A stretch of 64,000 nucleotides of DNA from Candidatus Moraniibacteriota bacterium (GCA_049304095.1 JBAQNU010000010.1:19311-83310); one strand, 5' to 3'; counted from the first letter of the stretch, positions 10,268 to 64,000 are shown. The notes: a model not told the origin generated them from the sequence alone. Made by a program: numbers and translations.

Positions 10268-10590
10268 CGCTTATTTGAAAGCGGACAGTCCGCGAGCTCG
10301 CGGACTGTCCGCTACTGACTGCCTCTTCTCCCTCCGAGAGAGGATGTCACGAGCACGTGACAGGTGAGGGTTCTCACCTATGCAGAAAAAACTAACAGTT
10401 AAGCTAAAGTGTCGCTGTTTCCAAAAGATCCCTCATCCGGCCTTCGGCCACCTTCTCCCGAAGGGAGAAGAGGATATAAATAAAATATTTGCGACGCAAA
10501 AAGACTTATATGCTAAGATAGTTTTGCGACTGGATTCCCGCCTTGCTCCACCGCTAAAGCTAATGCGGCACGCGGTCGCGGGAATGACAA
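10268..10590 (+). other. GC-rich highly structured element, a candidate ncRNA or structured 5' leader of the DUF45 gene
   Basis: In an AT-rich genome this block contains: a perfect 32-nt palindrome at 10281-10312 (GCGGACAGTCCGCGAGCTCGCGGACTGTCCGC); hairpins GTCACG-AGCA-CGTGAC (10346-10361) and GGTGAG-GGTT-CTCACC (10363-10378); CTTCTCCC-GAA-GGGAGAAG (10452-10470) nested inside a CCTC/GAGG outer stem with GGCC-UUC-GGCC; and an 8-bp stem ATTCCCGC/GCGGGAAT (10534-10585). The track ORFs over it are spurious. I could not match it to RNase P, tmRNA, SRP or 6S signatures. Confidence 0.4.
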
Positions 10591-36727: not shown

Positions 36728-38965
36728 ATGGCAAAAAAAGTGAAAAAAGGGGGAAAAAAGGTGAGTGCGAAAAAAAAGGCAGTAGCACCGAAAAAAAGTG
36801 TTGCTTTGAAAGTGGCTAGCAAAAAAAATGTAGCCAAGGCAGAGGGAATTAAAATTAAAAAAGTTATCAAACGTGATGGGAAACTGGTTAGCTTTGATGA
36901 GAGCAAAATTACGAAAGGTGTGACGAAAGCTTTGGCATCAACCAAAGAAGGGACAGCGCAAGACGCCAAAAAAGTGACCGAAAAAGTTACGAAGCTTTTG
37001 GGGCGAAAACATAAAGAAGGCTATGTGCCAGAAATTGAAGAAATTCAAGACCTCGTGGAAAGAGTGCTCATGATTTTGGATTTTGAAGAAACGGCCAAAG
37101 CCTATATTCTCTATCGCGAGCAACACCGCAAAAATCGTGAAGCGGAAAAGTCGCTGGATGAGGCGGTGAATCTGGTGGATAAATACATTCAAGAAATCGA
37201 CTGGAAGGTGAAAGAAAATGCCAACATGGCCTATTCGCTCCAAGGACTCAACAACTACATTTCTTCGATTGTGAGCGCTAAATATTGGATGAATCGTGTT
37301 TACACAAAAGCGATTCGCGAAGCGCACGAAGGCGGGGATTTTCACATTCATGATTTGCAACTCTTGGCTGCCTATTGTTGCGGATGGGACCTGCAAGATC
37401 TCTTGCGAAGAGGATTTACGGGTGTGCCGGGAAAAGTGGCTTGCAAGCCAGCGAAACACCTAGGTTCAATTTTGGGTCAAATGGTTAATTTTACCTATAC
37501 CACGCAAGGCGAAGTAGCAGGCGCGCAGGCATTTTCTAATTTTGACACACTGCTCGCTCCATTCGTGCGTTATGACAAATTGACCTATGATCAAGTGAAG
37601 CAAGAGATTCAATCCTACGTGTTTAATATGAATGTTTCCACGCGCGTGGGATTCCAGACGCCTTTTTCCAATATCACCATGGACATCACTTGTCCGAAAA
37701 ATCTCAAAAACGAAGCCGTGATTTTTGGTGGCTTGCCTCAGAAGGAAACTTATGGTGAGTTTCAGGAAGAAATGAACTTGATTAATCGCGCCTTTGCGGA
37801 AGTGATGACAGAAGGGGACGCGGCTGGACGCATTTTCACTTTTCCTATTCCGACCTATAACATTGGCAAAGATTTTGATTGGAAAGATAAGCGTTTTGAT
37901 GCGATTTGGGAGATGACGGCTAAATATGGCATTCCTTACTTTGCAAATTTTGTGAATTCCGACATGGATCCAGATGACGCGCGTTCAATGTGTTGCCGAT
38001 TGCGTCTTGATAATCGGGAATTGCACAAACGCGGAGGCGGACTGTTTGGGGCGAACCCAATGACTGGATCAATTGGCGTGGTAACCATTAATATGCCTCG
38101 CATTGGACATGTTGCCAAGAATAAAAAAGAATTCATGAGACAACTAAACTATCTGATGGATCTGGCGCGCGAAAGTTTGGAAACCAAAAGAACAATGGTA
38201 GAAAAACTGACCGAAGGTGGTCTCTATCCCTACACGAAATTTTATCTAGCTCCGATCAAAATGCGTCGTGGACAGTATTGGGCTAATCACTTCTCAACAA
38301 TTGGTCTGGTGGGCATGAATGAAGCGCTTTTAAACTTAATTGGCAAGGACATTACCACGTCAGCTGGACAAAAACTGGCGGAAGAAATTCTTGTGCATAT
38401 GCGAGAAAGAATTATTGGCTATCAAAAAGAAACCGGCAATCTCTATAACTTGGAAGCCACGCCGGCTGAAGGCACATCATATCGCTTGGCTAGGATGGAT
38501 CAAAAGAAATATCCAGAAATCATTTTTGCCAACAGCGATAAGGTGAATAAAAAAGAAGCGGAGCCCTACTATACTAATTCTTCTCAACTGCCCGTGCAAC
38601 ATACCGAAGATATTTTTGAAGCACTAGATTTGCAAGATAAATTGCAGACCAAGTATACCGGTGGAACGGTGTTGCATGGATTCTTAGGCGAGCGAATTTG
38701 GGATATTGAAACTACCAAAAAGCTGGTGCGCAAAATTGCCGAAAACTATGCTCTGCCATATTTCACTCTTACGCCAACTTTCAGTATTTGTCCGGTGCAT
38801 GGTTACATCAATGGTGAGCATCCCTATTGTCCCAAGTGTGTCATGGAACAAAAAACCGAAATTTATTCGCGCGTAGTGGGTTATATCCGACCAGTGGAAC
38901 AATGGAACAACGGCAAAAAAGCTGAGTTCGAAGATCGCAAAGAGTTTAAAGTAAAAAGCAAATAA
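36728..38965 (+). CDS. nrdD: anaerobic ribonucleoside-triphosphate reductase (class III), with Lys-rich N-terminal tail
   Basis: ATP-cone (VIKRDGKLVSFDESKI) and C-terminal zinc site (CPVHG...CPKC). Glycyl-radical motif SRVVGYIRP. First 45 aa are a histone-H1-like K/A-rich tail (MAKKVKKGGKKVSAKKKAVAPKK...). Confidence 0.85.
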   Translation: MAKKVKKGGKKVSAKKKAVAPKKSVALKVASKKNVAKAEGIKIKKVIKRDGKLVSFDESKITKGVTKALASTKEGTAQDAKKVTEKVTKLLGRKHKEGYVPEIEEIQDLVERVLMILDFEETAKAYILYREQHRKNREAEKSLDEAVNLVDKYIQEIDWKVKENANMAYSLQGLNNYISSIVSAKYWMNRVYTKAIREAHEGGDFHIHDLQLLAAYCCGWDLQDLLRRGFTGVPGKVACKPAKHLGSILGQMVNFTYTTQGEVAGAQAFSNFDTLLAPFVRYDKLTYDQVKQEIQSYVFNMNVSTRVGFQTPFSNITMDITCPKNLKNEAVIFGGLPQKETYGEFQEEMNLINRAFAEVMTEGDAAGRIFTFPIPTYNIGKDFDWKDKRFDAIWEMTAKYGIPYFANFVNSDMDPDDARSMCCRLRLDNRELHKRGGGLFGANPMTGSIGVVTINMPRIGHVAKNKKEFMRQLNYLMDLARESLETKRTMVEKLTEGGLYPYTKFYLAPIKMRRGQYWANHFSTIGLVGMNEALLNLIGKDITTSAGQKLAEEILVHMRERIIGYQKETGNLYNLEATPAEGTSYRLARMDQKKYPEIIFANSDKVNKKEAEPYYTNSSQLPVQHTEDIFEALDLQDKLQTKYTGGTVLHGFLGERIWDIETTKKLVRKIAENYALPYFTLTPTFSICPVHGYINGEHPYCPKCVMEQKTEIYSRVVGYIRPVEQWNNGKKAEFEDRKEFKVKSK

Positions 38966-39001: not shown

Positions 39002-39262
39002 ATGCAAAAACAAATTTGCCACGACTGTGGCCGAGAGCTTAAAAACAATGAAGAATATATGAACTATGTGATGGAAAGCGGAGAATTTTGCAAGTGCAAA
39101 AGTTGCCACGAAACCGATCCGGTGCTGCGTAATTTTCAAAGAACGGAAGTTTATTCCCGCGTGGTGGGCTACATTCGTCCAGTAGCACAGTGGAACAATG
39201 GAAAGCAAGCCGAATTTGATGATCGCAAAGAGTTCAAACTAGAAGGCGCAGCTTGCTGCTAA
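39002..39262 (+). CDS. stand-alone zinc-ribbon + glycyl-radical-motif mini-protein duplicating the NrdD C-terminus (candidate autonomous glycyl-radical spare part)
   Basis: CHDCGRE...CKCKSCHE followed by EVYSRVVGYIRPVAQWNNGKQAEFDDRKEFK. Compare the NrdD end EIYSRVVGYIRPVEQWNNGKKAEFEDRKEFK. The nucleotide sequences differ at many synonymous sites. Confidence 0.6.
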   Translation: MQKQICHDCGRELKNNEEYMNYVMESGEFCKCKSCHETDPVLRNFQRTEVYSRVVGYIRPVAQWNNGKQAEFDDRKEFKLEGAACC

Positions 39263-42281: not shown

Positions 42282-43793
42282 ATGAACAAGGCGAAAATAT
42301 TTTTGTTATTTTCTTTGAGTTTTATTTTGGGAATTTTTCTGGCGTCATTTTTTTATCCCATTTTTTTGCCATCGATTTCCTTGTGTTTAGTGATGCTTTT
42401 GGCCATAATTATCTTTTTTGTTTTCTATAAAAATAAAATCGCAACACTGGTTTCTTTGGCGCTTTTGATGTTTGCTTTTGGTTTTTATCTTACTCAGAAA
42501 AAACTGGATAAAATAAACTCATTTAAAGATGCGCCGGAGGAGGTAGAATTTTCCGGTCGGGGGATAATTGTAGCGGAGCCGAAAATAAAAGATAGTAAAC
42601 AGGATTTAATTTTCTCTGCCTACGCTAAGGCTTCGGTAGATAAATCGTCTGATAATATAAACTACAGCATTCTCATTCAAGAAAGCGCTTTTGAAAATTT
42701 TGCTTATGGCGAAGAAATTGATTTGAAATGCAAGTTGGAGTTGCCGAAAAATATGGCGGACAGCGATTTTGACTATAAGGCCTATTTGGCCAGGCAAGAT
42801 ATTTTTTATCTTTGTCAAAAACCTAGCATTGAAAAGACGGGTAAAAATTTGGGCAATCGTTTTTATGGCGCGGTCGTGGCGCTCAAAAATAAATTTAGCG
42901 CGAACATCTATGCGCTCATTCCTTCGCCGGAAGCGGCACTACTCGAAGGCCTCATTATTGGCGGAAGCGGAAATTTGTCCAAGGAAATTCAAGCCAATTT
43001 TTCGCGCACCGGAATGACGCACATCGTGGCGGTTTCTGGATATAACATAACAATTGTGGCGCAGTATCTGATGCTCATCGGACTTTTTTTGGGTCTTTGG
43101 CGGCGACAAGCGTTTTGGTTTGCCCTCATTGGCATTTGGATTTTCATTCTCATGACGGGTTTTCCGGCGTCGGCAATTCGCGCTGGGGTGATGGGCACAC
43201 TGCTTCTTTATGCGATGAAAAATGGGCGGCTGGCGAACGCCGGTAATGCCATTCTTTTTTCCGCTGTCGTGATGCTTTTTTGGAATCCACTGCTTCTCCG
43301 CTATGACGTCGGATTTCAACTGTCTTTTTTGGCCACTCTTGGCATTGTCTATTTCTATCCAATATTTGAAAAATATTTTGGTGAAAAGTTGAAAAAATAT
43401 CCCGATATTTTTTCGTTCGTGGGAGAAATTCTGTTTATGTCGCTCTCAGCTCAGATTCTAGTTTTGCCGATAATTCTGTTTAATTTTCAAACGCTTTCGC
43501 TTATTTCTCCTGTGACGAATATCTTAGTCCTGCCAATTTTACCCATCACAATGCTTATTGGCTTTCTGGCTGTTGCCACCAGTTTTATCTTTCAGCCACT
43601 TGCTATTTTCTTTTCTTGGCTAAGTTATCTTCCGTTACGCTATGAAATTTCTGTTATCAACTATTTTGCTAATCTCAAGTTTTCTGCTCTTGTAGTCGGC
43701 CTTTCGTGGCAAGGAATGGTGGTTTGGTATATAATTATAGTAGGCGCGATTTATAAGTCTAAAAAAATCCAAACCAAGAAATATGATGAATAA
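42282..43793 (+). CDS. comEC: ComEC/Rec2 competence channel protein, N-terminal (DUF4131 + competence domain) part only
   Basis: Multi-TM protein with the MTHIVAVSGYNITIV and LSFLAT motifs of the ComEC competence domain. No MBL domain; it ends at 503 aa. Confidence 0.75.
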   Translation: MNKAKIFLLFSLSFILGIFLASFFYPIFLPSISLCLVMLLAIIIFFVFYKNKIATLVSLALLMFAFGFYLTQKKLDKINSFKDAPEEVEFSGRGIIVAEPKIKDSKQDLIFSAYAKASVDKSSDNINYSILIQESAFENFAYGEEIDLKCKLELPKNMADSDFDYKAYLARQDIFYLCQKPSIEKTGKNLGNRFYGAVVALKNKFSANIYALIPSPEAALLEGLIIGGSGNLSKEIQANFSRTGMTHIVAVSGYNITIVAQYLMLIGLFLGLWRRQAFWFALIGIWIFILMTGFPASAIRAGVMGTLLLYAMKNGRLANAGNAILFSAVVMLFWNPLLLRYDVGFQLSFLATLGIVYFYPIFEKYFGEKLKKYPDIFSFVGEILFMSLSAQILVLPIILFNFQTLSLISPVTNILVLPILPITMLIGFLAVATSFIFQPLAIFFSWLSYLPLRYEISVINYFANLKFSALVVGLSWQGMVVWYIIIVGAIYKSKKIQTKKYDE

Positions 43794-54120: not shown

Positions 54121-54138
54121 TTGATTAAATATTTTTTT

Positions 54139-54741
54139 ATGAAATATAAGGCAGTGGGTTTTGATTATGGTGGGGTTATTGCTGGCATTCCAAGTTCAGA
54201 GTTTAATCGACGAATTACAGAATTACTTGGCGTAAGCATCGAAACGTATAAAACAGTTTATTTTAGAAATAACCACTTATTAAACCACGACACACTATCA
54301 ACAGATAAATTTTGGAGCAAAGTGTTAAGTGAAATGAATAAATCCGACAAGCTTGATGATTTGTTAAAATTTCTCAAGTCACTAAATCAGCACGAAATAA
54401 ATAATGATATTTTAGAATTAGCTAGGCACTTAAAAACTCTTGGTTATAGAATTGGGATATTAAGTAATAATACGTTAGAGGGGGTGGATAAAATGAAAGA
54501 TGCTGGCTTGATGGAATTATTTGATGTTGTGGCTGTGTCTACAGAAATTGGTTTTAGTAAGCCAAATCCAAAAGCGTTTGATATCTTCATAGAAAAGCTT
54601 GATGTATCACCACAAGAGCTTGTTTTCATAGATGATACAGCGAAAAGCTTAGAATCGGCAAAAGAAATTGGTTATCAACCTGTCATATACACTGAATTGA
54701 AAAAGTTACAGAATGACTTAGGCGAGCTGGGAGTTTTATGA
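54139..54741 (+). CDS. HAD-superfamily hydrolase
   Basis: FDYGGVI (DxG motif I variant), ILSNN (motif II) and a FIDD region (motif IV). ATG 54139 preferred over TTG 54121. Confidence 0.65.
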   Translation: MKYKAVGFDYGGVIAGIPSSEFNRRITELLGVSIETYKTVYFRNNHLLNHDTLSTDKFWSKVLSEMNKSDKLDDLLKFLKSLNQHEINNDILELARHLKTLGYRIGILSNNTLEGVDKMKDAGLMELFDVVAVSTEIGFSKPNPKAFDIFIEKLDVSPQELVFIDDTAKSLESAKEIGYQPVIYTELKKLQNDLGELGVL

Positions 54742-54821: not shown

Positions 54822-54849
54822 AGCAAAGTTATCGAAAAATGAAAAATAT

Positions 54850-54902
54850 GCGCCTATAGCTCAGTCTGGTAGATCCGCCAGCTGGCGGACTATTAAGCAA
54901 AC
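54850..54902 (+). pseudogene. tRNA-derived 5' fragment (copy A): acceptor 5' strand + D-arm + palindromic hairpin CCGCCAGCTGGCGG replacing the 5' strand of the anticodon stem
   Basis: The first 25 nt are near-identical to tRNA-Lys (GCGCCTATAGCTCAGTCTGGTAGA). The fragment ends ...CTATTAAGCAAAC and runs directly into the SD AGGGAGGA of the GIY-YIG gene. Cannot fold as a tRNA. Confidence 0.5.
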
Positions 54903-54921
54903 AGGGAGGATAAATGTGGGT

Positions 54922-55176
54922 ATGTTCAAAACTTACGCAATTTACAATAAAGAAAAAGATACAATATACATAGGACAGACCGCTGATCTTGAAAGTAGGC
55001 TATTGAGGCATAACGGAGTACTTAGGAATAAAGAAAAATCATTTACGAGTAAAAATAGCGGAAATTGGAAATTGATTTACGAAGAAAGTTTCGAAAGCAG
55101 ACAAGATGCAATGAAAAGAGAAAAGGAATTAAAAAGTTGCCAAGGCAGAAAGTTTATTAGAAGTTTGACAAAATAA
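54922..55176 (+). CDS. GIY-YIG nuclease family protein (small URI-domain, YhbQ/COG2827-like)
   Basis: FKTYAIYNKEKDTIYIGQTADLESRLLRHNG...NWKLIYEESFESRQDAMKREKELKSCQGRKFIRSL is a full GIY-YIG motif set (GIY, YIG, Arg, Glu). SD AGGGAGGA lies 7 nt upstream. The track ORF start 54808 reads through the tRNA-like copy A and is rejected. Confidence 0.75.
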   Translation: MFKTYAIYNKEKDTIYIGQTADLESRLLRHNGVLRNKEKSFTSKNSGNWKLIYEESFESRQDAMKREKELKSCQGRKFIRSLTK

Positions 55177-55184
55177 TATATAAT

Positions 55185-55258
55185 GCGCCTATAGCTCAGT
55201 CCGGTAGAGCAGTTGCCTTTTAAGCAAACGGTCCCAGGTTCGAATCCTGGTGGGCGCA
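55185..55258 (+). tRNA. tRNA-Lys (anticodon UUU), CCA not encoded
   Basis: Folded by hand. Acceptor GCGCCTA/TGGGCGC, D-arm GCTC-AGTCCGGTA-GAGC, anticodon arm GTTGC-CTTTTAA-GCAAA (one terminal G-A mismatch), T-arm CCAGG-TTCGAAT-CCTGG, discriminator A. Confidence 0.8.
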
Positions 55259-55269
55259 CAAATAAAAAA

Positions 55270-55344
55270 CTCAGTCCGGTTGATCCGCCAGCCGGCGGAC
55301 TTTTAAGCAAACGGTCCCAGGTTCGAATCCTGGTGGGCGCACCA
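55270..55344 (+). pseudogene. tRNA-derived 3' partial copy (copy C) with hairpin CCGCCAGCCGGCGG and intact T-arm, acceptor 3' strand and encoded CCA
   Basis: Starts 11 nt after tRNA-Lys. Lacks the 5' acceptor strand. Shares the hairpin-bearing 43-nt variant segment with copy A (4 mismatches) and the 3' 35 nt with the intact tRNA. Confidence 0.5.
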
Positions 55345-55421
55345 TAGGGGATTTATCAGAATCACAAGTCTTATTAATCTCATAGATAACCCCCAATCGG
55401 GTGGTTCGAAAACCTTCTTTT
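55339..55421 (+). repeat. direct repeat R1, copy a (begins with the tRNA-like 3' GCACCA)
   Basis: 83 nt identical to 61537-61619 (GCACCATAGGGGATTTATCAGAATCACAAGTCTTATTAATCTCATAGATAACCCCCAATCGGGTGGTTCGAAAACCTTCTTTT). Confidence 0.8.
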
Positions 55422-55613
55422 TTTGGTATAAAACTCATTCAGGGGACATGAAAAGCTTTTCCCGAAGCCTCTTGCTCTTTTTCCTTTCATCCAGATGACA
55501 AGTCATGGCATTCCTTGAATTATCCCTATTCACACCAGTAGGATATTTGAGCTTTTTGTGCTACAATAAATTCATCGAAGTGGGGAATATAATAAAAAAT
55601 ATAAACCAAAAAA

Positions 55614-55652
55614 ATGAACAAGAATCTGCTCTCTCTCGAAATAGCGAACTAA
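55614..55652 (+). other. 12-codon upstream ORF (MNKNLLSLEIAN) in a leader region homologous to 57800-57910
   Basis: The leader of the KilA-N gene is about 70-75% identical to the leader of the 57940 gene. Both contain a 12-codon ORF starting MNK and a CT-rich tract. Confidence 0.3.
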
Positions 55653-55678
55653 AATTATTTTCCCATATCTAGCAAGTT

Positions 55679-56524
55679 ATGAAACAAAAAATAAATGTAA
55701 AAAATATCGAAATTGTCCTATTTCAAAAAAGTCAAGCGGACTATATTTCATTGACTGACATTGCCAAATACAAAAATGCTGAATTTCCCGCCGATGTTGT
55801 GAAAAACTGGACAAGAACAAAAAGCACGGTGGAATTTCTTGGTTTATGGGAAAGGCTGAATAATTCTAATTTTAAACTGGTCGAATTCGACGGGTTTAAA
55901 AACGAAGCGGGCAGCAATGCTTTCGTATTATCTCCTCAAAAATGGATTGAGAAAACAAATGCCATTGGCATCATTTCCAAGTCAGGCCGTTATGGCGGAA
56001 CCTATGCCCACAAGGACATTGCTTTTGAATTTGCTTCTTGGATTTCAGCCGAATTCAAGCTCTATCTCATCAAGGAATTTCAACGGCTCAAAGAAGAAGA
56101 AAATGAAAGAAAATCACTGGGCTGGGATCTGCGAAGAAATTTAGCTAAAATAAATTATCGAATTCATACCAATGCCATCAAGGAAAACTTGATTCCCGCA
56201 AAAATCAGAAAGAATCAGGAAAACATAATTTATGCCAACGAAGCCGATGTGCTGAATGTGGCGTTGTTTGGAATAACGGCTAAAGACTGGCGAGATAAAA
56301 ATCCTGGAAAAGAGGGAAATGTAAGGGACTATTCTTCAGTTGAGCAGTTAGTGTGTCTAACTAATCTGGAAAGTATGAACGCGATACTGATTAAACAAGG
56401 CATAGCACAAAAACAAAGGCTGCAAGCGTTGAATGAGATGGCAATTGATCAGATGAAAATACTTTTAGGACAAAGCAATGGGGCGATTAAGAAAGGCTCT
56501 TTAACAAATAGTGTGTTGAATTAG
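55679..56524 (+). CDS. KilA-N domain protein, C-terminus altered by IS insertion
   Basis: KilA-N hallmarks ADYISLTDIAKY...NWTRTKSTVEFL and GGTYAHKDIAFEFASWISAEFKLYLIKEF. The last 9 codons (GSLTNSVLN) are encoded by the IS left end. The pre-insertion C-terminus is reconstructed as ...AIKKLQE. Confidence 0.7.
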   Translation: MKQKINVKNIEIVLFQKSQADYISLTDIAKYKNAEFPADVVKNWTRTKSTVEFLGLWERLNNSNFKLVEFDGFKNEAGSNAFVLSPQKWIEKTNAIGIISKSGRYGGTYAHKDIAFEFASWISAEFKLYLIKEFQRLKEEENERKSLGWDLRRNLAKINYRIHTNAIKENLIPAKIRKNQENIIYANEADVLNVALFGITAKDWRDKNPGKEGNVRDYSSVEQLVCLTNLESMNAILIKQGIAQKQRLQALNEMAIDQMKILLGQSNGAIKKGSLTNSVLN

Positions 56525-57774
56525 TATTAGAAATGGAATAAAAGCGAGCGTTACTTTTGCAATATAATTATCAATATTTCTAAATCCAAAGGAAACTCTT
56601 TTAATCATCTTGATTTTTGTGTGCACCCCTTCGGTAAAAGCATTGGTGGAATAATTATCAAAGTAATTCAGAATATTTTCCTTCCAACGAAACAAAGTTT
56701 TTCCAAAGCTTTTCATATACCGAGAATGTGAATTTTCGCAAAACATAATGATCGTATTCAATTTCTTCCTGGCTTCTTTTTTATCTTTCAAACAATAAAA
56801 ATCTCGCAGTTTTTCTTTGATGAAGTAGGCTTGGTAGAGCGAGGGAAACTTTTCCAACTTTTTAAACAGCAATTCCAATTTGATTTTCTCTTTCTCATTT
56901 AGTTTCTCTTTCCCTTTAAATAGTATCTGCCGGATATGGTAGCCCTTGTTAACCATAATCGATCTGACTTCATCCAAATTTTTGTTGGCATAAGCAATGA
57001 CATGAAATTTATCCACCGTCACCTTCACTTTAGGCAACTCTCTTTTGATTGTATTGAGATAGCCTCGTTGCATATCAATGCAGACCTCAGAAATACGCTT
57101 CTGGTCGGCTTTTTGCAAGAATTCAGTTAATGTTGCCAGTCTGTCATCTTTGCCCACCATCAGCAGTTTCTTTTTGGTGATATTAGTCGCCGTCAACACC
57201 AATTTTCTTCCGCGATAGCTATGTTCATCAATACCCAGCACGAACTTTTCACCCTGCTCCTCCCAATCAATCTCTTTGAATTTCTCATGATTTTCTTGCA
57301 ATACTGCATACAAAACCGGCGGAGAAATATCGGTAGTTTGTTTCACGTAGCTCAAGCTATTCCGAGCCAGATCTTTTAAAAGTACTCTTCTGAAATTTTC
57401 TGTTGTACTTCGCTTGTCGATGCCAACCACATGTTCCATAAAAGCTTTCTTGCAATGATTGCAGTAGAACCGTCTAACCCTCAAACGCAAGATTACCTTT
57501 CGACTTTGCCATACGGAGTGCAATATCTTTCTGGACTTGTACTGGTGAACCCTCTTGACCGAACAGGTGCAGTGCGGACAGATACAATACTTGCGGGGGT
57601 TTCTAACTTTAACGGTAACTTCCTCATCTGTTATCTCCCAGCCGTCAACCCAGACATTTTGCAAATTTAGCAGTTTTTTGATATCTTGTTTCATAGGAGT
57701 GGTGTGAATTTATGTTTAAGCGCTTAAATTCTACCACTTCTTTAGTTATCCACCACACTAATTATTATAGAGCC
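56495..57774 (-). mobile_element. ISL3-family insertion sequence (about 1.28 kb) with 8-bp target-site duplication TTAAGAAA
   Basis: Terminal inverted repeats GGCTCTTTAACAAATAGTGTG (56495-) and the reverse complement of CACACTAATTATTATAGAGCC (-57774). Identical flanking TTAAGAAA at 56487-56494 and 57775-57782. Confidence 0.8.
56501..57694 (-). CDS. ISL3-family DDE transposase
   Basis: N-terminal zinc-finger-like CxxC...CxxC (CICPHCTC ... CNHCKK), HTH region, and the DDE core typical of ISL3 (GIDEHSYRG..., VCIDMQRGY...). Confidence 0.85.
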   Translation of the reverse strand: MKQDIKKLLNLQNVWVDGWEITDEEVTVKVRNPRKYCICPHCTCSVKRVHQYKSRKILHSVWQSRKVILRLRVRRFYCNHCKKAFMEHVVGIDKRSTTENFRRVLLKDLARNSLSYVKQTTDISPPVLYAVLQENHEKFKEIDWEEQGEKFVLGIDEHSYRGRKLVLTATNITKKKLLMVGKDDRLATLTEFLQKADQKRISEVCIDMQRGYLNTIKRELPKVKVTVDKFHVIAYANKNLDEVRSIMVNKGYHIRQILFKGKEKLNEKEKIKLELLFKKLEKFPSLYQAYFIKEKLRDFYCLKDKKEARKKLNTIIMFCENSHSRYMKSFGKTLFRWKENILNYFDNYSTNAFTEGVHTKIKMIKRVSFGFRNIDNYIAKVTLAFIPFLILIQHTIC

Positions 57775-57857
57775 TTAAGAAATTGCAAGAATAGTTTTTT
57801 GTGTTACAATGAATTTATTAAAAAAAGTAGATATAAATTTTCTCAAAAACCAAAAAA

Positions 57858-57896
57858 ATGAATAAAATTTTTACTCTCTCTCTCTCTCTCGAATAA
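57858..57896 (+). other. 12-codon upstream ORF (MNKIFTLSLSLE) containing a (CT)8-9 microsatellite
   Basis: Homolog of the 55614 uORF. CT repeat at 57874-57890. Confidence 0.3.
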
Positions 57897-57939
57897 ACTA
57901 CTAAAATCTTTATTTTTTAATAAAGCATATTTTCGACTG

Positions 57940-60900
57940 GTGCTGTTTATTTTCTGTGCCGGTTTTTTTGTGTTTGGGTTTGGAGCGAAGGCGGGTGCGG
58001 CGACGTATTATGTGGACCAATCAATTGGTAATGACTCTAACCAAGGAAGTTCAGATTCCCAGTGGAAGAATATTTGGTATGCTGATGAAAAAATGACCGA
58101 TGGCGACACGCTTAATATAAAAGCTATGGCTAATAATCCTCATCGTGGTAACATGAACACTTCCACGAATAATTTGACAGTGCAAGGAACTGATGGTGAG
58201 ACAGCCTACATATTGGGCTCTCGTGATGTTTCGAGTGGGGCTAATATTGGGAGTCTCGCGTATAATACCGATTTGGATAGCTGGACTTCTTCAACCATTC
58301 CAACAAGGCTCGCAGTTACTTTGACAGGAGACTCTTTAATTACGCAACAAACCGGAGATTTTGTTCAATCAGGGAGTTCTGCAAAATTTGCAAGAACGTC
58401 TACGGGAACGGGTTCTTTAACGCAAGTGGTTTATTTACCGGCGAATACTGAATTTAGCATTAATTTTGATCATTTTGAAACAGCAGGATCGTATAGATTT
58501 AAATATAATGTGCGTGAAGATTTAGTTACAGATAATTATCTCCAGTCTGATGGATCTTGGTCTTCTTCTGGCTACACCTTTGACGATGTTGGAAACTCAA
58601 ATGGGCATTGGGCTAGCTATTCTAAAACATTTACGACGAACGGATCGAGTACTTATTATGTAACCGTTAATATGGGATACTCAACAACATCTTATCTTGA
58701 TAATTTTACTATTATTCCTACCGAAAATAATTATTCCTGGTCTGTTTATAGTGGGGATATATATAAACTTGACCAGATATTACCAGATCAGATAAAAACG
58801 CTAACAAAATGTACTAGCGCAGTATGGACATCATTAGGGGCAAGCGCGCTTTCTAATATTTTACAAGGATCAAGCAAAGACGAATTATTTCCCGGACAAT
58901 GGACATGGGAAAGCGGAACACTTTATTATCGTCTTTCCGCTAATGAATCCGATATTACAGGTATTCATTTCGAGGCTGGTATGATACATGAAAAGATCGG
59001 CTCAATAGGTAGTACACTTATTTTTGGTGGCAATGGAATTGCCTTGAATGATTTGTCATTACTTGTTGCTAATAATAATGGTCTTGCTATCTCCTCTGGT
59101 GGTAGCGCAATAGCCAGTAGAGTACATAGTTTTTTTTCGAATTATGTTAATGGTAGTTCTTTTAGCTCAGACGGAGATCTTGTGGCTAATAATTGTACTG
59201 GATCTGACAGTTATATAGGTTTTTTGGCATCAGGCAGTGATGCTTCTTTGGTTGTAAATAGAAGCCTTGCTTCAAATAATTATAACAAGGGTATCGTTTG
59301 GACGAGTGGAGCGGATGGAGCTGCTAATTATTCGATTGCCTCTGGAAATGGATTGGAAGAAGCTGCTAATAATACAGGAATTGCTGTTCATGTAGGAGGA
59401 GAGTCTGATGTTAATATGTATAACAATACCTCTCAGGGTAACTATGGAAGAGGCATAGGTGTATCTGGCTCTGGTTTAATAATTACTAAAAACAATATCG
59501 CGTATAATACTGAGTATGGCGCATCGAGTGATTTCCATATTGCTGATTTTTCAGGATCGTTAACTCATACAAATAATATTGGAGGAGGTTATTATTCGGG
59601 ATGGTCTCCTTTGACTAGTGAACAATTAACTAATCCTCTTTTTATTGATTCTATTTCTCATGATTTTACCATCCAATCTACCTCTCCTGCCATCGATGCC
59701 GGCACCGATGTCGGACTGGCTACCGACTACGCCGGCAACCCTATCTATGGCCTCCCTGACATCGGCGCCTATGAATATCAGCCGCCATATACCATGGGTT
59801 CTAACCAAGTGGACGTTGCAGCTGATGTGCGAGTCTATGGAAACGGAAAATTTAGAAACACCGAAACTCCCAACGGAACGGACGCCGATCTCTCAGTTGA
59901 TCCGGCTTCCGACAACATCACCCAGTATTTGGATATCGACATTGCCACTTGGGAAACTTCAGGAGACTATGAAAAACAATGGACAGAAAGCTCCACCACC
60001 ATAACAGGAAACACCTTGCATACAGTTGGCGATTTGGAAGCGGGAAAATACTACAACATTACTGCTGACGATGCTGTCACGGGTCTTTCCAGCGCCACTT
60101 GCGATGCAGTCGATTCCAATTTCGTCTGCCAGGCCGATTCCAACGGACAAATCGTGTTCACTTGGACCGGCGGATATTCTACACACACTTTCACAGTGAC
60201 CGAGGGGGATAACCTTGATCCAACGGTAACCAACGGAACCAGTGCCAAATTTCACACTGATACAACTTCCGTCACACTGTCTCTGGTCACTTCTGAAAAC
60301 TCCACCTGCAAATATTCGACAGAAAATACCACCTATGACAACATGACCACTTTTACTAATACGGGTGGAACTACTCACACCACGATAGTAAATAGCCTTA
60401 CTCCCAGTAACTACTCCTACTATGCCATCTGCCGTGATACCGTAGGCAACGATACCAGCTATACACTTACATTTGAAATTGCTCAAAGAGAAAATGATAC
60501 TGGAATCAGTGACGCCAAACTAAAAATCAACGGAAACAATGAAACCCTAGACAAGGACAAGAAAATCTACTTTGATGAGGACGAAGGCCGACTGAAAGGT
60601 CAGGATGATACCATCGCCAACGGAACAGTTAAAATATACAAAGAAGGCAAGAGAATTGCTACGGTTGATGTTGGTAGCGATGGCAGTTGGAGCAAGAGGC
60701 TATCTTTCGGTCACAACAAAACTTACACACTGAAACTTAAATTCTATGACCAGTATGGAACACTCAGGGACGAGAAAGAGCATGATGTTAAAGTGGATAC
60801 TGAAAAACCAGTTTTCATCAATCCCTTTTCTCAAACACTCTCTATTCAAAAAGACGATAAAATAAATTTTGAAGCGACTGATGACACAGGCATCGATTAT

Positions 60901-61449
60901 TACAAAATTCAAATTTTGGATAAATTAGGTCATATTGCAAGAGCCTGGAGAAAACAAATCAAAAGTTTCTATCTTATTCCAGAAAACATCTTAGAGCAGG
61001 CGGATACTATTATGGTCAGAGCTTATGACAAGGCGGGGAACTACGCCGAAGAAAAAGCTGTCTTAAATATCACCAATGCCAGTAATGATACGCTAGCAGA
61101 TAATTCTGGCAATGAATCGTCAAAGCAGGAGGCGAGCAATGCAAGTAAGCCCAATGTTTGCAATTACACCGTGCAAGCCGGTGATACTCTGTGGAGCATT
61201 GCCAAGACAGTCTATGGCGACGCTACGGAGTATCAAAAAATTATTGATTTAAATAAGGATAAATATCTTGATATTGAATCCAAGCTTAGTATCGGACAAG
61301 AATTAAATTTTGGTTGTGAGAATAATAATGCTGTCCAGGGAGTGAGTGATGAGAAAAGCAATACAAATGACGCTAATAATCAACCAGGGCAAGCGCAATC
61401 AGAAGCACGAGAAACATTTAAGTGGTGGAATCCGTTTTCGTGGTTTTAG
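57940..61449 (+). CDS. large secreted parallel-beta-helix repeat protein with C-terminal LysM domain
   Basis: GTG start. Signal-like N-terminus. PbH1-type repeats (NNCTGSDSYIGF..., GIAVHVGGESDVNMYNNTSQGNYGRGIGVSGSGLIITKNNIAYN). C-terminal LysM (YTVQAGDTLWSIAKTVYGDATEYQKIIDLN). A marked shift to C-ending codons and higher GC between about 59690 and 60480. Confidence 0.7.
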   Translation: MLFIFCAGFFVFGFGAKAGAATYYVDQSIGNDSNQGSSDSQWKNIWYADEKMTDGDTLNIKAMANNPHRGNMNTSTNNLTVQGTDGETAYILGSRDVSSGANIGSLAYNTDLDSWTSSTIPTRLAVTLTGDSLITQQTGDFVQSGSSAKFARTSTGTGSLTQVVYLPANTEFSINFDHFETAGSYRFKYNVREDLVTDNYLQSDGSWSSSGYTFDDVGNSNGHWASYSKTFTTNGSSTYYVTVNMGYSTTSYLDNFTIIPTENNYSWSVYSGDIYKLDQILPDQIKTLTKCTSAVWTSLGASALSNILQGSSKDELFPGQWTWESGTLYYRLSANESDITGIHFEAGMIHEKIGSIGSTLIFGGNGIALNDLSLLVANNNGLAISSGGSAIASRVHSFFSNYVNGSSFSSDGDLVANNCTGSDSYIGFLASGSDASLVVNRSLASNNYNKGIVWTSGADGAANYSIASGNGLEEAANNTGIAVHVGGESDVNMYNNTSQGNYGRGIGVSGSGLIITKNNIAYNTEYGASSDFHIADFSGSLTHTNNIGGGYYSGWSPLTSEQLTNPLFIDSISHDFTIQSTSPAIDAGTDVGLATDYAGNPIYGLPDIGAYEYQPPYTMGSNQVDVAADVRVYGNGKFRNTETPNGTDADLSVDPASDNITQYLDIDIATWETSGDYEKQWTESSTTITGNTLHTVGDLEAGKYYNITADDAVTGLSSATCDAVDSNFVCQADSNGQIVFTWTGGYSTHTFTVTEGDNLDPTVTNGTSAKFHTDTTSVTLSLVTSENSTCKYSTENTTYDNMTTFTNTGGTTHTTIVNSLTPSNYSYYAICRDTVGNDTSYTLTFEIAQRENDTGISDAKLKINGNNETLDKDKKIYFDEDEGRLKGQDDTIANGTVKIYKEGKRIATVDVGSDGSWSKRLSFGHNKTYTLKLKFYDQYGTLRDEKEHDVKVDTEKPVFINPFSQTLSIQKDDKINFEATDDTGIDYYKIQILDKLGHIARAWRKQIKSFYLIPENILEQADTIMVRAYDKAGNYAEEKAVLNITNASNDTLADNSGNESSKQEASNASKPNVCNYTVQAGDTLWSIAKTVYGDATEYQKIIDLNKDKYLDIESKLSIGQELNFGCENNNAVQGVSDEKSNTNDANNQPGQAQSEARETFKWWNPFSWF

Positions 61450-61474
61450 CTTATAGAATCACAGTAGAATCCTT

Positions 61475-61542
61475 CATTAATTTCTGCCACTGGATCAATT
61501 CAGCAACAATTTGGTTCCAACTGGCGCGTAAGTGCTGCACCA
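61475..61542 (+). repeat. direct repeat R2, copy a (ends GCTGCACCA), immediately followed by R1 copy b
   Basis: 68 nt, 3 mismatches to 63481-63548 (CATTAATTTCTGCCAyTGGAkCAATTCAGCAACAATTTGGTTCCAAyTGGCGCGTAAGTGCTGCACCA). Confidence 0.8.
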
Positions 61543-61619
61543 TAGGGGATTTATCAGAATCACAAGTCTTATTAATCTCATAGATAACCCCCAATCGGGT
61601 GGTTCGAAAACCTTCTTTT
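61537..61619 (+). repeat. direct repeat R1, copy b
   Basis: Identical to 55339-55421. Overlaps R2a by the shared GCACCA. Confidence 0.8.
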
Positions 61620-61725
61620 CGTCGATACGAAATTCCTTCGGGAAATACCATTTTTTGGAACCCTTTGTTTGTTGTGTAATTGGCTTATATCACAAGCAAA
61701 TTGGAAATAATTTTCATAATCAACA

Positions 61726-62610
61726 ATGAATAAAGACTTTGATATAAATTTATATTTAAACCACATCGCACGAGAATTAATAAGTAATTATTCTTTCGCT
61801 GGTGATGCAACAACTCCAGCCTTAGTGGGGGGAGCAAGGGAAAGGGAGATTAGAAAAAAACTATCTTCTTTTTTGCCATCTAGCGTTGGTATTGGTACTG
61901 GATGTGTAATAGATAGTTATGGCAACACCAGTAATCAAATAGACATAGTTATCTATGAAAAACAACTGTGTCCTGTTTTTTCAATAAACGATAGCCCAGA
62001 AACAACTTATTTCCCATGCGAAGGCGTTATTGCTGTCGGTGAAGTTAAAAGTACTTTAAATGGTGACGAGTTGGAAGATATTTTTAAAAAAATAAACTCT
62101 GTAAAAAGCTTAGAGCGATTTGCAAATCCCTCTAAAAACAAGCTCACTAATGAATTAAGCGTATCTTTCAGAAATTATGGAAACTCCATTTCATGGGACG
62201 CTACAAAATCCGAGGAGTTTGATCAGAAAAATAAAAGAACAGATCAGATCTTTGGTTTTGCTTTTTGTGGAAACGTAGACTTAAAACCACAAACCCTACT
62301 AGATAAATATTGCACGCTTTTGAAATCATTCGAAAAATGCAATACTCCTAATTTGATATCAATTTTGAATTACGGACTCGTACTATATATGAACAGGAAG
62401 CTTAATGAAATAAGATATTGGCCAGGAGATGACGCTGATTCTATATATATAACTTCAAAAAGAGAAAATAATTTTCAGTTTTTATTGGCCAGATTGACCG
62501 AGGTAATTCGTTCATATAGGACAGTAGAGTTGAGCGTGTTTGCTAGTAGATATATTTCACCATCTGTGGGCGATATATTACTAGACGGAACCTTCAAAAA
62601 AATCGATTAA
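61726..62610 (+). CDS. hypothetical protein with PD-(D/E)xK-nuclease-like motif
   Basis: IDIVIYEK ... EGVIAVGEVKS fits a D...(D/E)xK core. Motif-level inference only. Confidence 0.35.
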   Translation: MNKDFDINLYLNHIARELISNYSFAGDATTPALVGGAREREIRKKLSSFLPSSVGIGTGCVIDSYGNTSNQIDIVIYEKQLCPVFSINDSPETTYFPCEGVIAVGEVKSTLNGDELEDIFKKINSVKSLERFANPSKNKLTNELSVSFRNYGNSISWDATKSEEFDQKNKRTDQIFGFAFCGNVDLKPQTLLDKYCTLLKSFEKCNTPNLISILNYGLVLYMNRKLNEIRYWPGDDADSIYITSKRENNFQFLLARLTEVIRSYRTVELSVFASRYISPSVGDILLDGTFKKID

Positions 62611-62735
62611 CAAGATGCCGTAGATACTTTTTATGTTCTATCAACTAGGCCGTTTCCATTTTTTGTAATACAATATAGACATAGGTAACTTTAATATTCT
62701 AACTTCAATTTTCAAAACTAGCCGCTCGGCGCGTT

Positions 62736-63440
62736 TTGAGAATTACCCGCCATATGTCACCAGAGATGTTCAACCCCTATGATCCCAAATATAAAAAAGT
62801 TGAAGATTTGCCCAAGGAAATGCAGCCCAAGTTTGCTGATTATAAAGACGGATTTGTCACCAAGGCTGCGCGGGAAGAAGAGGCTGAGGCTGAAAAAATA
62901 ATCCAATTAGCTAATCAATTGAAAGAGGCGGGAGTAGACGCGAAAAAGATCTTGAGATACGACAGATCGGGAAGAATGAAAGAAATAGGAGAGGCTATGC
63001 AAAATGATCAGACGGAAATAGATGTTTTGAGAGAAAGAGCCGTCAAAGAAGAATCTGAACCGACTTCGTTGGATGTTTTGCATGAAGAAGCGAACGAGAT
63101 GCACTTCAAAAAATTTCCTGAGATTTTCTATATCGAAAGGCTAAAAAGCAATCCTGATATATTGACAGGCATACCAAAGCATGTCTGGGGCAATAAAAAG
63201 TTTGCTCTAGAAGCCGTTAAATTGAACGCAAAGGCTCTACACAAGATCCGGGGAAAGGGGTACGATAAAGAAGTTGTGCTGGAAGCGGTAAGGCACGACG
63301 GACTTGCTCTTCAATATGCGCCATCTTATAGTAATGACAAAGACGTGGTTCTTGAAGCCACTAAACAGAATCCAATTGCCATCAAGTATGCATCGAAAGA
63401 TATCAAGAAGGCGGTTGGAAAGATTATGGAGGGGGCATAA
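62736..63440 (+). CDS. DUF4116 repeat protein
   Basis: Tandem about 37-aa repeats of the form ALEAVKLNAKALHKI.../VLEAVRHDGLALQYAPSYSNDKDVVLEATKQNPIAIKYAS, typical of DUF4116. Confidence 0.55.
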   Translation: MRITRHMSPEMFNPYDPKYKKVEDLPKEMQPKFADYKDGFVTKAAREEEAEAEKIIQLANQLKEAGVDAKKILRYDRSGRMKEIGEAMQNDQTEIDVLRERAVKEESEPTSLDVLHEEANEMHFKKFPEIFYIERLKSNPDILTGIPKHVWGNKKFALEAVKLNAKALHKIRGKGYDKEVVLEAVRHDGLALQYAPSYSNDKDVVLEATKQNPIAIKYASKDIKKAVGKIMEGA

Positions 63441-63480
63441 ACGGTAGCTATTTGCATAATTCGTCAGTTCTTTCAGATTG

Positions 63481-63548
63481 CATTAATTTCTGCCATTGGA
63501 GCAATTCAGCAACAATTTGGTTCCAATTGGCGCGTAAGTGCTGCACCA
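63481..63548 (+). repeat. direct repeat R2, copy b (ends GCTGCACCA)
   Basis: See R2 copy a. Marks the right boundary of the second cassette. Confidence 0.8.
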
Positions 63549-63551
63549 AAG

Positions 63552-63578
63552 AAAAAAATCCATCCAGTGGATTTTTTT
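63552..63578. terminator. bidirectional-type terminator hairpin flanked by A-run and T-run (AAAAAAATCCA-TCCAG-TGGATTTTTTT)
   Basis: Read from sequence, immediately after R2 copy b. Confidence 0.5.
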
Positions 63579-63641
63579 TCGTTTTGTGGTGTATAATATT
63601 ATAATAAAAATATGATCTAAAAAATGTAAAAAGAATTTTTT

Positions 63642-64000
63642 ATGCTAGTTTTTATTGATGACTCAGGTTGCGCCGGGTTTAAATTCGATAAAGGATCGAG
63701 CCGATTTTTTATTATCAGTGCAGTTATTTTTGATGATAATTTAGATGCGGAAAAAACAGCTATTTCAATAAAAGAATTAAGAAGAGAGCTATTTGGACGG
63801 GATGATGTCGAATTTAAATTTCACAAATCAAAAGATGAAAAAAGGGTAAAGTTTCTAGAATGCATCAAGAAACATAAGTTTAGGATAAGATGTGTAGTCG
63901 TGGACAAAAATCTGCTTTATAGCCCGGAACTAAAAAGCAATAAAAATTCTTTTTATAGCTATATAATCAAGATGATGCTCAAACATAGCAATGAAACTAT
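63642..64000 (+). CDS. DUF3800-family protein, 3' end beyond window
   Basis: MLVFIDDSGCAGFKFDKGSSRFFIISAVIF carries the FIDDSG hallmark of DUF3800. Open frame to the window end. Confidence 0.6.
   Translation, partial: MLVFIDDSGCAGFKFDKGSSRFFIISAVIFDDNLDAEKTAISIKELRRELFGRDDVEFKFHKSKDEKRVKFLECIKKHKFRIRCVVVDKNLLYSPELKSNKNSFYSYIIKMMLKHSNET

Follow-up and report, generated by a model that had tools for sequence, protein, structure and literature searches.

The 64,000-nt window analysed here (GCA_049304095.1 JBAQNU010000010.1:19311-83310) comes from Candidatus Moraniibacteriota, a lineage of the Patescibacteria (candidate phyla radiation, CPR) with an ultra-small genome. It contains an island between a tRNA-Lys region and a BNR-repeat gene, the gene order being ftsI - murF - HAD - tRNA-Lys region - island - BNR-repeat gene - frr - rseP - mreBCD. 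We consider it probable, at roughly 80%, that this island consists of two decayed, related elements of the large serine recombinase (LSR) type, 6,198 and 2,006 nt in size, which lie in tandem directly after the GCACCA of a pseudo-tRNA-Lys copy. All features are listed in Table 1.

The island is organised by two direct repeats, for which the initial annotation had given positions, lengths and mismatches that we could reproduce exactly. R1 (83 nt) is located at 55339-55421 and 61537-61619 without any mismatch, and R2 (68 nt) at 61475-61542 and 63481-63548 with three mismatches (61490, 61495 and 61521). Both occur twice in the window, while 100 shuffles yielded no matches. The repeats meet each other or the flanking DNA at three junctions, J1, J2 and J3, and at all three GCACCA is followed by (T/A)AG. 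With GCACCA as the common sequence, the junctions have the structure B-O-P', P-O-P' and P-O-B', respectively; in other words, J2 is composed of the left side of J3 and the right side of J1. J2 and J3 are also present in independent k=31 Logan contigs (run SRR28062512), so the adjacency of R2 and R1 exists in the reads.

If the island had been inserted at the tRNA-Lys region, an uninterrupted site might be expected in relatives, as the initial annotation had predicted. Contigs of relatives were collected by cluster look-up of core proteins, including variants of at least 90% identity. Three of them, L092 (JGI 3300037810, 79.9 kb), L093 and L094, all from one relative, match the window at 96.8% identity in the 10.1 kb upstream of the island and at 95.7% in the 6.4 kb downstream. 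In all three, ...GGGCGCACCA is followed immediately by AAGAAGAAAAAATCCTCCAGTGGATTTTTTTT, that is, the pseudo-tRNA GCACCA by the AAGAAG of the terminator region, and the sequence leads straight into the BNR gene. The order in L092 is murF, promoter, tRNA-Lys, 10 nt, and a pseudo-tRNA copy (copy C, 11553-11645) ending in ...GGGCGCACCA, after which follows AAGAAGAAAAAATCCTCCAGTGGATTTTTTTTGTTTTGTGGTATATAATGTAAATATG with the start of the BNR gene. The empty site thus combines the sequence to the left of the core in J1 with that to the right of it in J3 and has a single GCACCA, and it defines the 8,204 nt at 55345-63548 as an insertion exactly after this sequence. The HAD gene, the GIY-YIG cassette with its nuclease open reading frame (ORF) and the DUF3800 module are likewise missing at this site of the close relative. 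In a distant relative (L003, 71% MurF identity) the order murF - tRNA-Lys - ... - BNR - frr is retained with two other genes in between, which indicates that the spot is variable.

The target deserves closer attention. The tRNA-Lys region of the window comprises three copies, A, B and C. Only copy B is an intact tRNA-Lys(UUU), the sole one of the region, and its CCA is not encoded (...GCGCAC AAATAAAAAA). The promoter ahead of copy A is conserved with L003 and L092. Copy C (3' terminal sequence GCGCACCA), which supplies the left half of the attB used by the island, was not recognised as a tRNA by either ARAGORN or Rfam. The view that the island had entered at tRNA-Lys therefore holds insofar as the 3' end is derived from tRNA-Lys, but the target is a pseudo-tRNA-Lys copy and not a functional gene. 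The right half of attB, the native trailer, is contiguous with GCACCA in the empty site and is duplicated once more beyond the DUF3800 module (repeat R3, see below).

The nature of R1 and R2 is revealed by their translation. On the minus strand an ORF runs at J2 through R1, the core and R2 and ends in ...GFQKMVFPEGISYRRKEGFRTTRLGVIYEINKTCDSDKSPMVQHLRASWNQIVAELIQWQKLMKDSTVIL and a stop codon. A phmmer search with this translation against 1.84 billion representatives returned 37 proteins at E <= 1e-3 (best 1.3e-13), two of which (P0299 and P0302) are low-complexity artefacts. The proteins were 70-552 aa long and matched with their C-terminal ends. The longest, P0310 (552 aa), possesses a Resolvase domain (E 1e-26) and Zn_ribbon_recom, and the tail matches its residues 468-533; the LSR zinc-ribbon region is also present in P0311, P0316 and P0320. 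Only this exhaustive search disclosed the homology: Pfam assigned no family to the 66-aa peptide, and a word-indexed protein search returned nothing. A gap-free alignment of 14 tails gave the consensus RFQKLVFPEGIxYxRGxGFGTAKLGLIYELN..KSxLVxL....WNQIxxELxxW with the invariant positions P8, T21, V42, W49, N50 and L56. V42 is encoded by GTG; the complementary CAC is part of the core (61538-61540, 55340-55342 and 63544-63546). In agreement with this, tblastn matched J1 (55438->55340) with the N-terminal part of the tail, J2 (61681->61454, E 5e-19) with its full length and J3 (63552->63475) with its C-terminal part. At J1 the frame continues past ...KSPMV into antisense tRNA (RPPGFEPGTVCLK), and a frame-broken remnant extends beyond R1a to about position 55494. 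Altogether 76 integrase codons survive at J2, about 33 at J1 and 32 at J3. Of the three differences between R2a and R2b, two change an amino acid (S>N and I>L) and one is synonymous, which is the pattern to be expected of coding sequence. Read in this way, R1 represents the part of a serine-integrase gene that directly precedes the crossover and R2 the part that follows it; at J2 the two are unsplit. The proposal that the repeats form a novel promoter/terminator module is not supported. Two other candidates were rejected. A structured RNA was discarded because neither R1 nor R2 gave an Rfam match even at E <= 10 and R2-R1 (-30.2 kcal/mol) folds no better than shuffles (z = -1.0); small hairpins occur within R1 and R2, and no inverted repeats were found between them. 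A decayed tRNA 3' half in R2 was discarded because 469-1646 of 5000 shuffles reached the observed score in local and semi-global alignments, GCACCA being the only common part.

The same split is found elsewhere. Several tail homologues (P0306, P0322, P0327, P0328 and P0329) lose the match behind the Val, from where on they are a translation of antisense tRNA. P0306 reads ...KSLVV followed by GDRGLEPRTSSLS..., and then a second antisense tRNA; P0322 reads ...DLV followed by DPVGFEPTTSALQ, and ...SDLV followed by DPVGFEPTTSALQMRRSTN. In L102, the only IMG/VR locus found with the tail profile, the profile match ends at residue 42, and the DNA encodes ...KKSLIV followed by DCAGLEPATSAV, overlapping a tRNA-Ala(UGC) at 436-509 on the opposite strand. 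With the window included, the ORF is fused to a tRNA 3' end immediately behind this Val in at least seven independent instances. Using these sequences and standard tRNA numbering, xTG-GTG can be read as the antisense of CAC-CAx, which would correspond to C72-A73-C74-C75-A76 in a tRNA that pairs G1 with C72 and has A73 as its discriminator. Moreover, distantly related full-length LSRs (Resolvase, Recombinase, Zn ribbon) at syntenic loci of other Moraniibacteriota extend antisense into tRNA-Trp (L016) or tRNA-Gln (L032 and L035), their ORFs ending within the tRNA. Judging from these genes, serine integrases reading into tRNA 3' ends seem to be common in this phylum. For the intact element in L016, no tRNA-end repeat that might mark its far end was detected within the 3 kb examined.

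These observations can be combined into the following scenario. The mover of the family would be an LSR encoded on the opposite strand, at the end of the element nearer to the tRNA, with its gene reading toward the tRNA. The attP core would be situated inside the 3' coding region of the integrase gene, where xTG-GTG with the invariant Val is the antisense of the tRNA end CACCA. A circular element carrying attP in its integrase ORF would recombine with the CACCA end of pseudo-copy C, and integration would split the ORF: the body up to ...KSPMV would remain beside the tRNA and continue into antisense tRNA, and the last ~27 codons with the stop (R2) would be moved to the far end of the element. 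Judged by its relatives, an LSR probably catalysed this first insertion. Since serine integrases normally pair only attP with attB, homologous recombination is the likeliest route by which the second, related element (R2 96% identical) entered; a circular copy would have recombined with the resident element via the shared integrase/att region, which would produce exactly the order found: cargo 1, J2, cargo 2. Both integrase bodies would have been lost later in situ, leaving remnants that end near 55494 (frame-broken) and 61681 and elements that are now immobile. The idea of serial integration of elements with an attP of the form R2-CACCA-R1 into a tRNA 3' end, which the initial annotation had put forward, is supported by the empty site and by the split of the integrase tail at the core. 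That annotation had also seen no recombinase in the window and had assumed the enzyme to be elsewhere or lost. The absence stands, as no window ORF had a Pfam match to a tyrosine or serine recombinase family and there was none among the called genes in the 9 kb downstream; a loss in situ with retention of the att-spanning tail, rather than a location elsewhere, accounts for it in our scenario.

How does the locus compare with what defines an LSR element? Homology to bona fide LSR proteins is present, and so are a simple attP x attB arrangement with a short common core, hybrid attL/attR sites and an empty attB in relatives. An ORF, or a fragment of one, with Resolvase, recombinase and zinc-ribbon domains was found neither in the window nor in the 9 kb downstream, and because no LSR-domain protein is left, we class the locus as a remnant rather than an active member. 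No candidate for a recombination directionality factor was identified. It also has the properties of a cis-mobilizable element, being flanked by att sites and carrying no recombination genes.

Several points weigh against this interpretation. The serine-recombinase catalytic domain is absent from the window (Pfam on ORFs and tblastn). attB and attP share an identity of only 6-9 nt. Serine integrases normally pair attP only with attB, as is established for the family, and a second LSR insertion next to attL or attR would not be expected; to arrive at two elements in tandem, homologous recombination or some unusual event is required. The two R1 copies are 100% identical over 83 nt, whereas identity drops to ~60% right beyond them, for which gene conversion is one possible explanation. 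Further copies of R1 and R2, for which a search in relatives had been suggested, were found at the DNA level in no other genome among IMG/VR, JGI metagenomes, phage and plasmid collections, 80 syntenic Moraniibacteriota loci and about 100 kb of the close relative. Finally, no full-length member of the family was seen with both ends.

Some of these points could be taken to mean that host recombination built the layout, from DNA acquired by natural transformation, either through GCACCA microhomology or through RecA-mediated Campbell recombination via the 68-83-nt repeats, with R2-R1 still being the end of an integrase gene. ComEC is indeed encoded in the window (42282-43793), other modules in this region, namely the GIY-YIG cassette (D8, D4) and the DUF3800 module (R3), are flanked by direct repeats of 26-50 nt, and both the established fact that serine integrases do not normally target attL or attR and the sharp boundary of the perfectly identical R1 would be accommodated. 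However, the insertion coincides to the base with the codon at which the family is split, which microhomology would not reproduce, and 6 nt of microhomology are too short for RecA. The first event would still require a site-specific step, and we regard host recombination as an unlikely explanation for the layout as a whole.

It might also be suspected that the tandem order is an effect of assembly, one element being chromosomal and the other circular or present in another strain, with the two threaded together through R1. In the k=31 graph two paths enter R1 and two leave it, the Logan contigs are interrupted within this repeat, and a circle with cargo 1 would yield the same J2 k-mers. On the other hand, the 83 nt of R1 are shorter than the k=127 suggested by contig names of sister metagenome-assembled genomes (MAGs) from the same study, and the MAG contig spans both tRNA-R1-cargo 1 and R2a-R1-cargo 2. 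The same proteins with the same neighbours occur on three long contigs with four NCBI accessions, and in the Logan contigs R2a continues only into R1 and R2b only into the trailer. Judged from contigs rather than from reads, an assembly artefact is unlikely, and as an account of the whole arrangement we give it very little weight.

Tandem arrays at tRNA genes are typical of islands with tyrosine integrases (bioRxiv 10.1101/2020.12.28.424599), and the recombinase search covered the window and the 9 kb downstream of it within the genome. Integrase-less elements of the cis-mobilizable or tycheposon-remnant type might accordingly have been moved in trans by a tyrosine recombinase encoded elsewhere in the genome, the similarity to LSR tails being irrelevant. 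Yet R2 contains no significant copy of a tRNA 3' half, unlike the attachment sites of tyrosine-integrase islands in tRNA genes; an Islander-type examination found no Phage_integrase match in any ORF and no displaced tRNA fragment at the far end; and the homology to LSR tails, which is strong, divides into its two parts precisely at the core. This origin appears highly improbable. An integron-like cassette array, which had also been proposed, or non-autonomous transposons (HUH/IS200-IS605-like or DDE) targeting CACCA can hardly be upheld despite the repeats between the cassettes, the small hairpins in R1/R2 and a flanking 6-nt repeat readable as a target duplication, because there is no IntI or attI beside the array, no attC-type imperfect hairpin (the fold of R2-R1 being no better than that of shuffles), no terminal inverted repeat and neither TnpA nor a DDE transposase except that of a separate ISL3 element with its own inverted repeats and target duplication, and because the repeats are recombinase coding sequence.

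If the island does consist of decayed LSR elements, it shares with known ones (the phages Bxb1, phiC31, A118 and TP901-1 and SPbeta/skin-type elements) the Resolvase and zinc-ribbon tail proteins, the short identity between attB and attP and the lack of a long target duplication. Known LSR elements reside mostly at protein-coding or intergenic sites, whereas here the target is the CACCA end of a tRNA and attP lies inside the integrase ORF. The use of tRNA genes by serine integrases is barely documented. Hudson et al. (2015) stated that tRNA genes were not known as targets of serine integrases (PMC4383910), and Mageeney et al. (2020) found only 14 such cases among 297 computed ones and asked for experimental proof (PMC7192596). 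Papers on serine integrases split at a tRNA CCA end were not found in a literature coverage that was incomplete and is no proof of absence.

A close parallel may be the 'suicidal' tyrosine integrases of archaea of the SSV1 type, together with IntP/IntX of the Myxococcus phage Mx8, which likewise have attP within the integrase gene, a gene partitioned or altered on integration, and a tRNA target. They differ in being tyrosine recombinases; in the present case a serine recombinase of a bacterium (Patescibacteria) is concerned and only the last ~27 codons are detached. According to a 2021 review, suicidal integrases are found exclusively in archaea, the location of att within the integrase gene being an archaeal feature of tyrosine recombinases (PMC8371274). 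With tycheposons and with cis-mobilizable elements (CIMEs) formed by accretion, the island shares the successive elements at one tRNA site, older ones being pushed inwards, and degenerate, integrase-less remnants that keep their cargo (bioRxiv 10.1101/2020.12.28.424599; PMC5704250). Tycheposons and other elements with tyrosine integrases are known to form such tandem arrays and to leave such remnants at tRNA genes. These systems depend on tyrosine recombinases and have partial tRNA copies as separators, whereas here the separator is the tail of an integrase gene and the tRNA-derived identity is limited to GCACCA. Finally, the island resembles defence islands at integration hot spots in its PADLOC-candidate cargo (PDC-S22, a NucC-like PD-DExK nuclease and PDC-M04A) and in the variability of the locus between close relatives; the cargo genes here are candidates by sequence match, and the host is a member of the Moraniibacteriota with an ultra-small genome.

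More tentatively, an LSR family common in Patescibacteria, with the attP core in its own last exposed helix, could enter many tRNA genes (Lys, Ala and others have been seen). The exchange of the last ~27 residues for tRNA-antisense residues might then act as a built-in switch of activity or directionality in the integrated state, which would make these enzymes a bacterial serine counterpart of the archaeal suicidal integrases. At the locus itself, what looked like an integrase-less cassette array becomes, on the main reading, an ordinary object, namely decayed integrative elements with a concrete history. Beyond this locus, the data point to a group of serine integrases that use the tRNA CCA end and, by integrating, split the gene that encodes them. 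Enzymes of this class are in wide use for genome engineering, and a family that combines a short, near-universal target with a self-altering C-terminus lends itself to direct testing. In addition, the locus shows how genes of the defence type get fixed beside tRNA genes in the very small genomes of Patescibacteria.

Table 1. Features of the tRNA-Lys island in the window and related features at other loci (window coordinates unless a locus is named)
Feature	Position	Strand	Description
Pseudo-tRNA-Lys copy A	54848-54915	+	tRNA 5' part downstream of native promoter; 16-nt GC hairpin TCCGCCAGCTGGCGGA in place of positions 24-31
GIY-YIG nuclease ORF, stand-alone, 86 aa	54916-55176	+	Pfam GIY-YIG E 2.7e-15
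Copy B, tRNA-Lys(UUU)	55185-55259	+	ARAGORN; Rfam tRNA 70.2 bits
Pseudo-tRNA-Lys copy C	55270-55344	+	starts in D loop; 16-nt GC hairpin for positions 24-31, 3' half, end GGGCGCACCA
J1			GGGC-GCACCA-TAGGGG; tRNA-Lys fragment joined to R1
R1a at J1, attL-like	55339-55421	-	encodes KEGFRTTRLGVIYEINKTCDSDKSPMV of serine-integrase tail, fused at Val (CAC, 55340-55342) to antisense tRNA (RPPGFEPG...)
KilA-N protein, cargo 1	55679-56524	+	Pfam E 9e-23; PADLOC candidate PDC-S22 E 6.8e-135, full length
ISL3-family insertion sequence	56493-57776	-	34-nt terminal inverted repeats; 8-bp target duplication TTAAGAAA
Surface protein, 1169 aa, cargo 1	57940-61449	+	choice-of-anchor Q domain and LysM
J2			TGCT-GCACCA-TAGGGG; R2 joined to R1
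J2, attP-like	61451-61681	-	contiguous LSR remnant, last 76 codons and stop; R2a 61475-61542, core GCACCA 61537-61542, R1b 61537-61619
DUF6602, PD-(D/E)xK nuclease, NucC-like, cargo 2	61726-62610	+	Pfam E 2.7e-26; PADLOC PD_DExK E 2e-35, NucC E 1e-20
DUF4116 protein, cargo 2	62754-63440	+	also paired with DUF6602 on an unrelated contig
R2b at J3, attR-like	63448-63548	-	last 32 codons and stop of a second, related integrase allele (VQHLRANWNQIVAELLQWQKLMQSERTDELCK, then stop), ending at core GCACCA 63543-63548
J3			TGCT-GCACCA-AAGAAA; R2 joined to A-rich trailer and terminator-like hairpin
Native tRNA trailer, terminator-like hairpin and -10 box AAGAAAAAAATCCATCCAGTGGATTTTTTTTCGTTTTGTGGTGTATAAT	63549-63600	+	right half of attB
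DUF3800 gene	63642-64000 (runs off window)	+	separate ~840-nt module outside R1/R2 bounds; PADLOC PDC-M04A
Full-length LSR genes of other subfamilies	L016 16602-18260(-); L032 81-1598; L035 114-1661; L011 1272-2426; L048 12222-13704(-)		adjoining tRNA-Trp or tRNA-Gln
GIY-YIG/tRNA cassettes	54848-55345; L007 1410-1925(-); L008; L036 1-400; L067 12012-12499; L071 3077-3500; L048 11883-12300		
GC hairpins	54874-54889; 55284-55299; 10289-10304; L092 11606-11625; L018; L062; L069; L070		

The cargo described in the initial annotation (a KilA-N gene, an ISL3 element, the 1169-aa LysM surface protein, DUF6602 and DUF4116, followed by DUF3800) holds by Pfam. Judging from sequence matches, the islands carry candidate phage-defence genes, KilA-N/PDC-S22 on the first element and the NucC-like DUF6602 gene with the DUF4116 gene on the second. 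A comparison of cargo and core G+C content, as had been recommended, gave 0.33-0.34 for DUF6602 (0.34) and DUF3800 as against 0.41 ± 0.025 for the core genome; the value for DUF6602 and the PADLOC candidate matches indicate the foreign character of the cargo. A cryptic recombinase was not found among the cargo genes, PADLOC, NCBIfam and PHROGs giving matches of the defence or regulator type only.

The KilA-N/PDC-S22 family is very large and unusually conserved, with more than 8000 matches and 66-89% identity among the 120 listed. Some of its sources could be named: Patescibacteria, Peregrinibacteria, archaea (Euryarchaeota, archaeon GW2011_AR17) and Syntrophus. In all three contexts examined the gene stood alone between unrelated genes. 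In the window its last ~7 codons are replaced by the insertion sequence; homologues are 274-275 aa long and nucleotide homology ends at 56478. The ISL3 element is a later, independent insertion into these last codons. DUF6602 (80% identical) and DUF4116 are adjacent on an unrelated JGI contig, which suggests a two-gene unit; a 76% identical DUF6602 was found alone elsewhere. A protein-based metagenome scan for DUF6602 yielded nothing, and relatives of the surface protein or of DUF4116 were not present in the fetched loci. The cargo genes were also considered as carriers of the repeats and rejected, since KilA-N and DUF6602 homologues stand alone in unrelated surroundings and the homology does not extend beyond the ORFs.

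The DUF3800 gene after cargo 2, which the initial annotation had simply placed behind the cassettes, belongs to a separate module with its own duplicated flank. Together with a DUF3800-IX RNA (RF02968, 52.8 bits, minus strand, L001 12570-12638) it forms a unit of ~840 nt (63591-64000 in the window and continuing; L001 11866-12704). A unit 89% identical to it is found in a different Moraniibacteriota MAG, where it occupies an unrelated position (L099 7949-8787). At the present locus, the native terminator and promoter of the BNR gene are duplicated over ~46 nt, with one copy on each side of the module (R3, L001 11832-11885 and 12739-12791).

Another recurrent structure is the GIY-YIG/tRNA cassette, of which copy A is the left flank in the window. 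It consists of a small GIY-YIG ORF preceded by the 5' part of a tRNA, with one or more GC-rich hairpins replacing the anticodon arm or located in the D loop. The ORF is followed by the same tRNA in intact form; several loci have in addition another partial copy, again with the same hairpin(s). The structure, seen in various Moraniibacteriota at tRNA-Lys, tRNA-Gln and tRNA-Glu, resembles a mobile, tRNA-gene-targeting cassette that brings its own replacement tRNA, and no published description of it was found. L092 has only the tRNA and the partial copy, which fits either a deletion of the GIY-YIG gene between the duplicated 5' parts or a new insertion in the lineage of the window. Short, perfect GC-rich hairpins (TCCGCCAGCYGGCGGA and similar) are intergenic in several Moraniibacteriota and are also inserted in pseudo-tRNAs; an extra 20-nt hairpin, CCTGCCTGCCGGTAGGCAGG, is present in the T loop of copy C of L092 and absent from the copy in the window.

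The HAD hydrolase gene (54121-54741), which lies between murF and the tRNA promoter and is missing at this site in the close relative, has a 94% identical copy at another locus of that relative, beside a paralogue (L095 9997-10601); no flanking repeats were seen around the insertion in the window. Further upstream, a 111-nt direct repeat of 78% identity (38849-38959 and 39137-39247) is located between an nrdD-type reductase gene and the gene of its activase.

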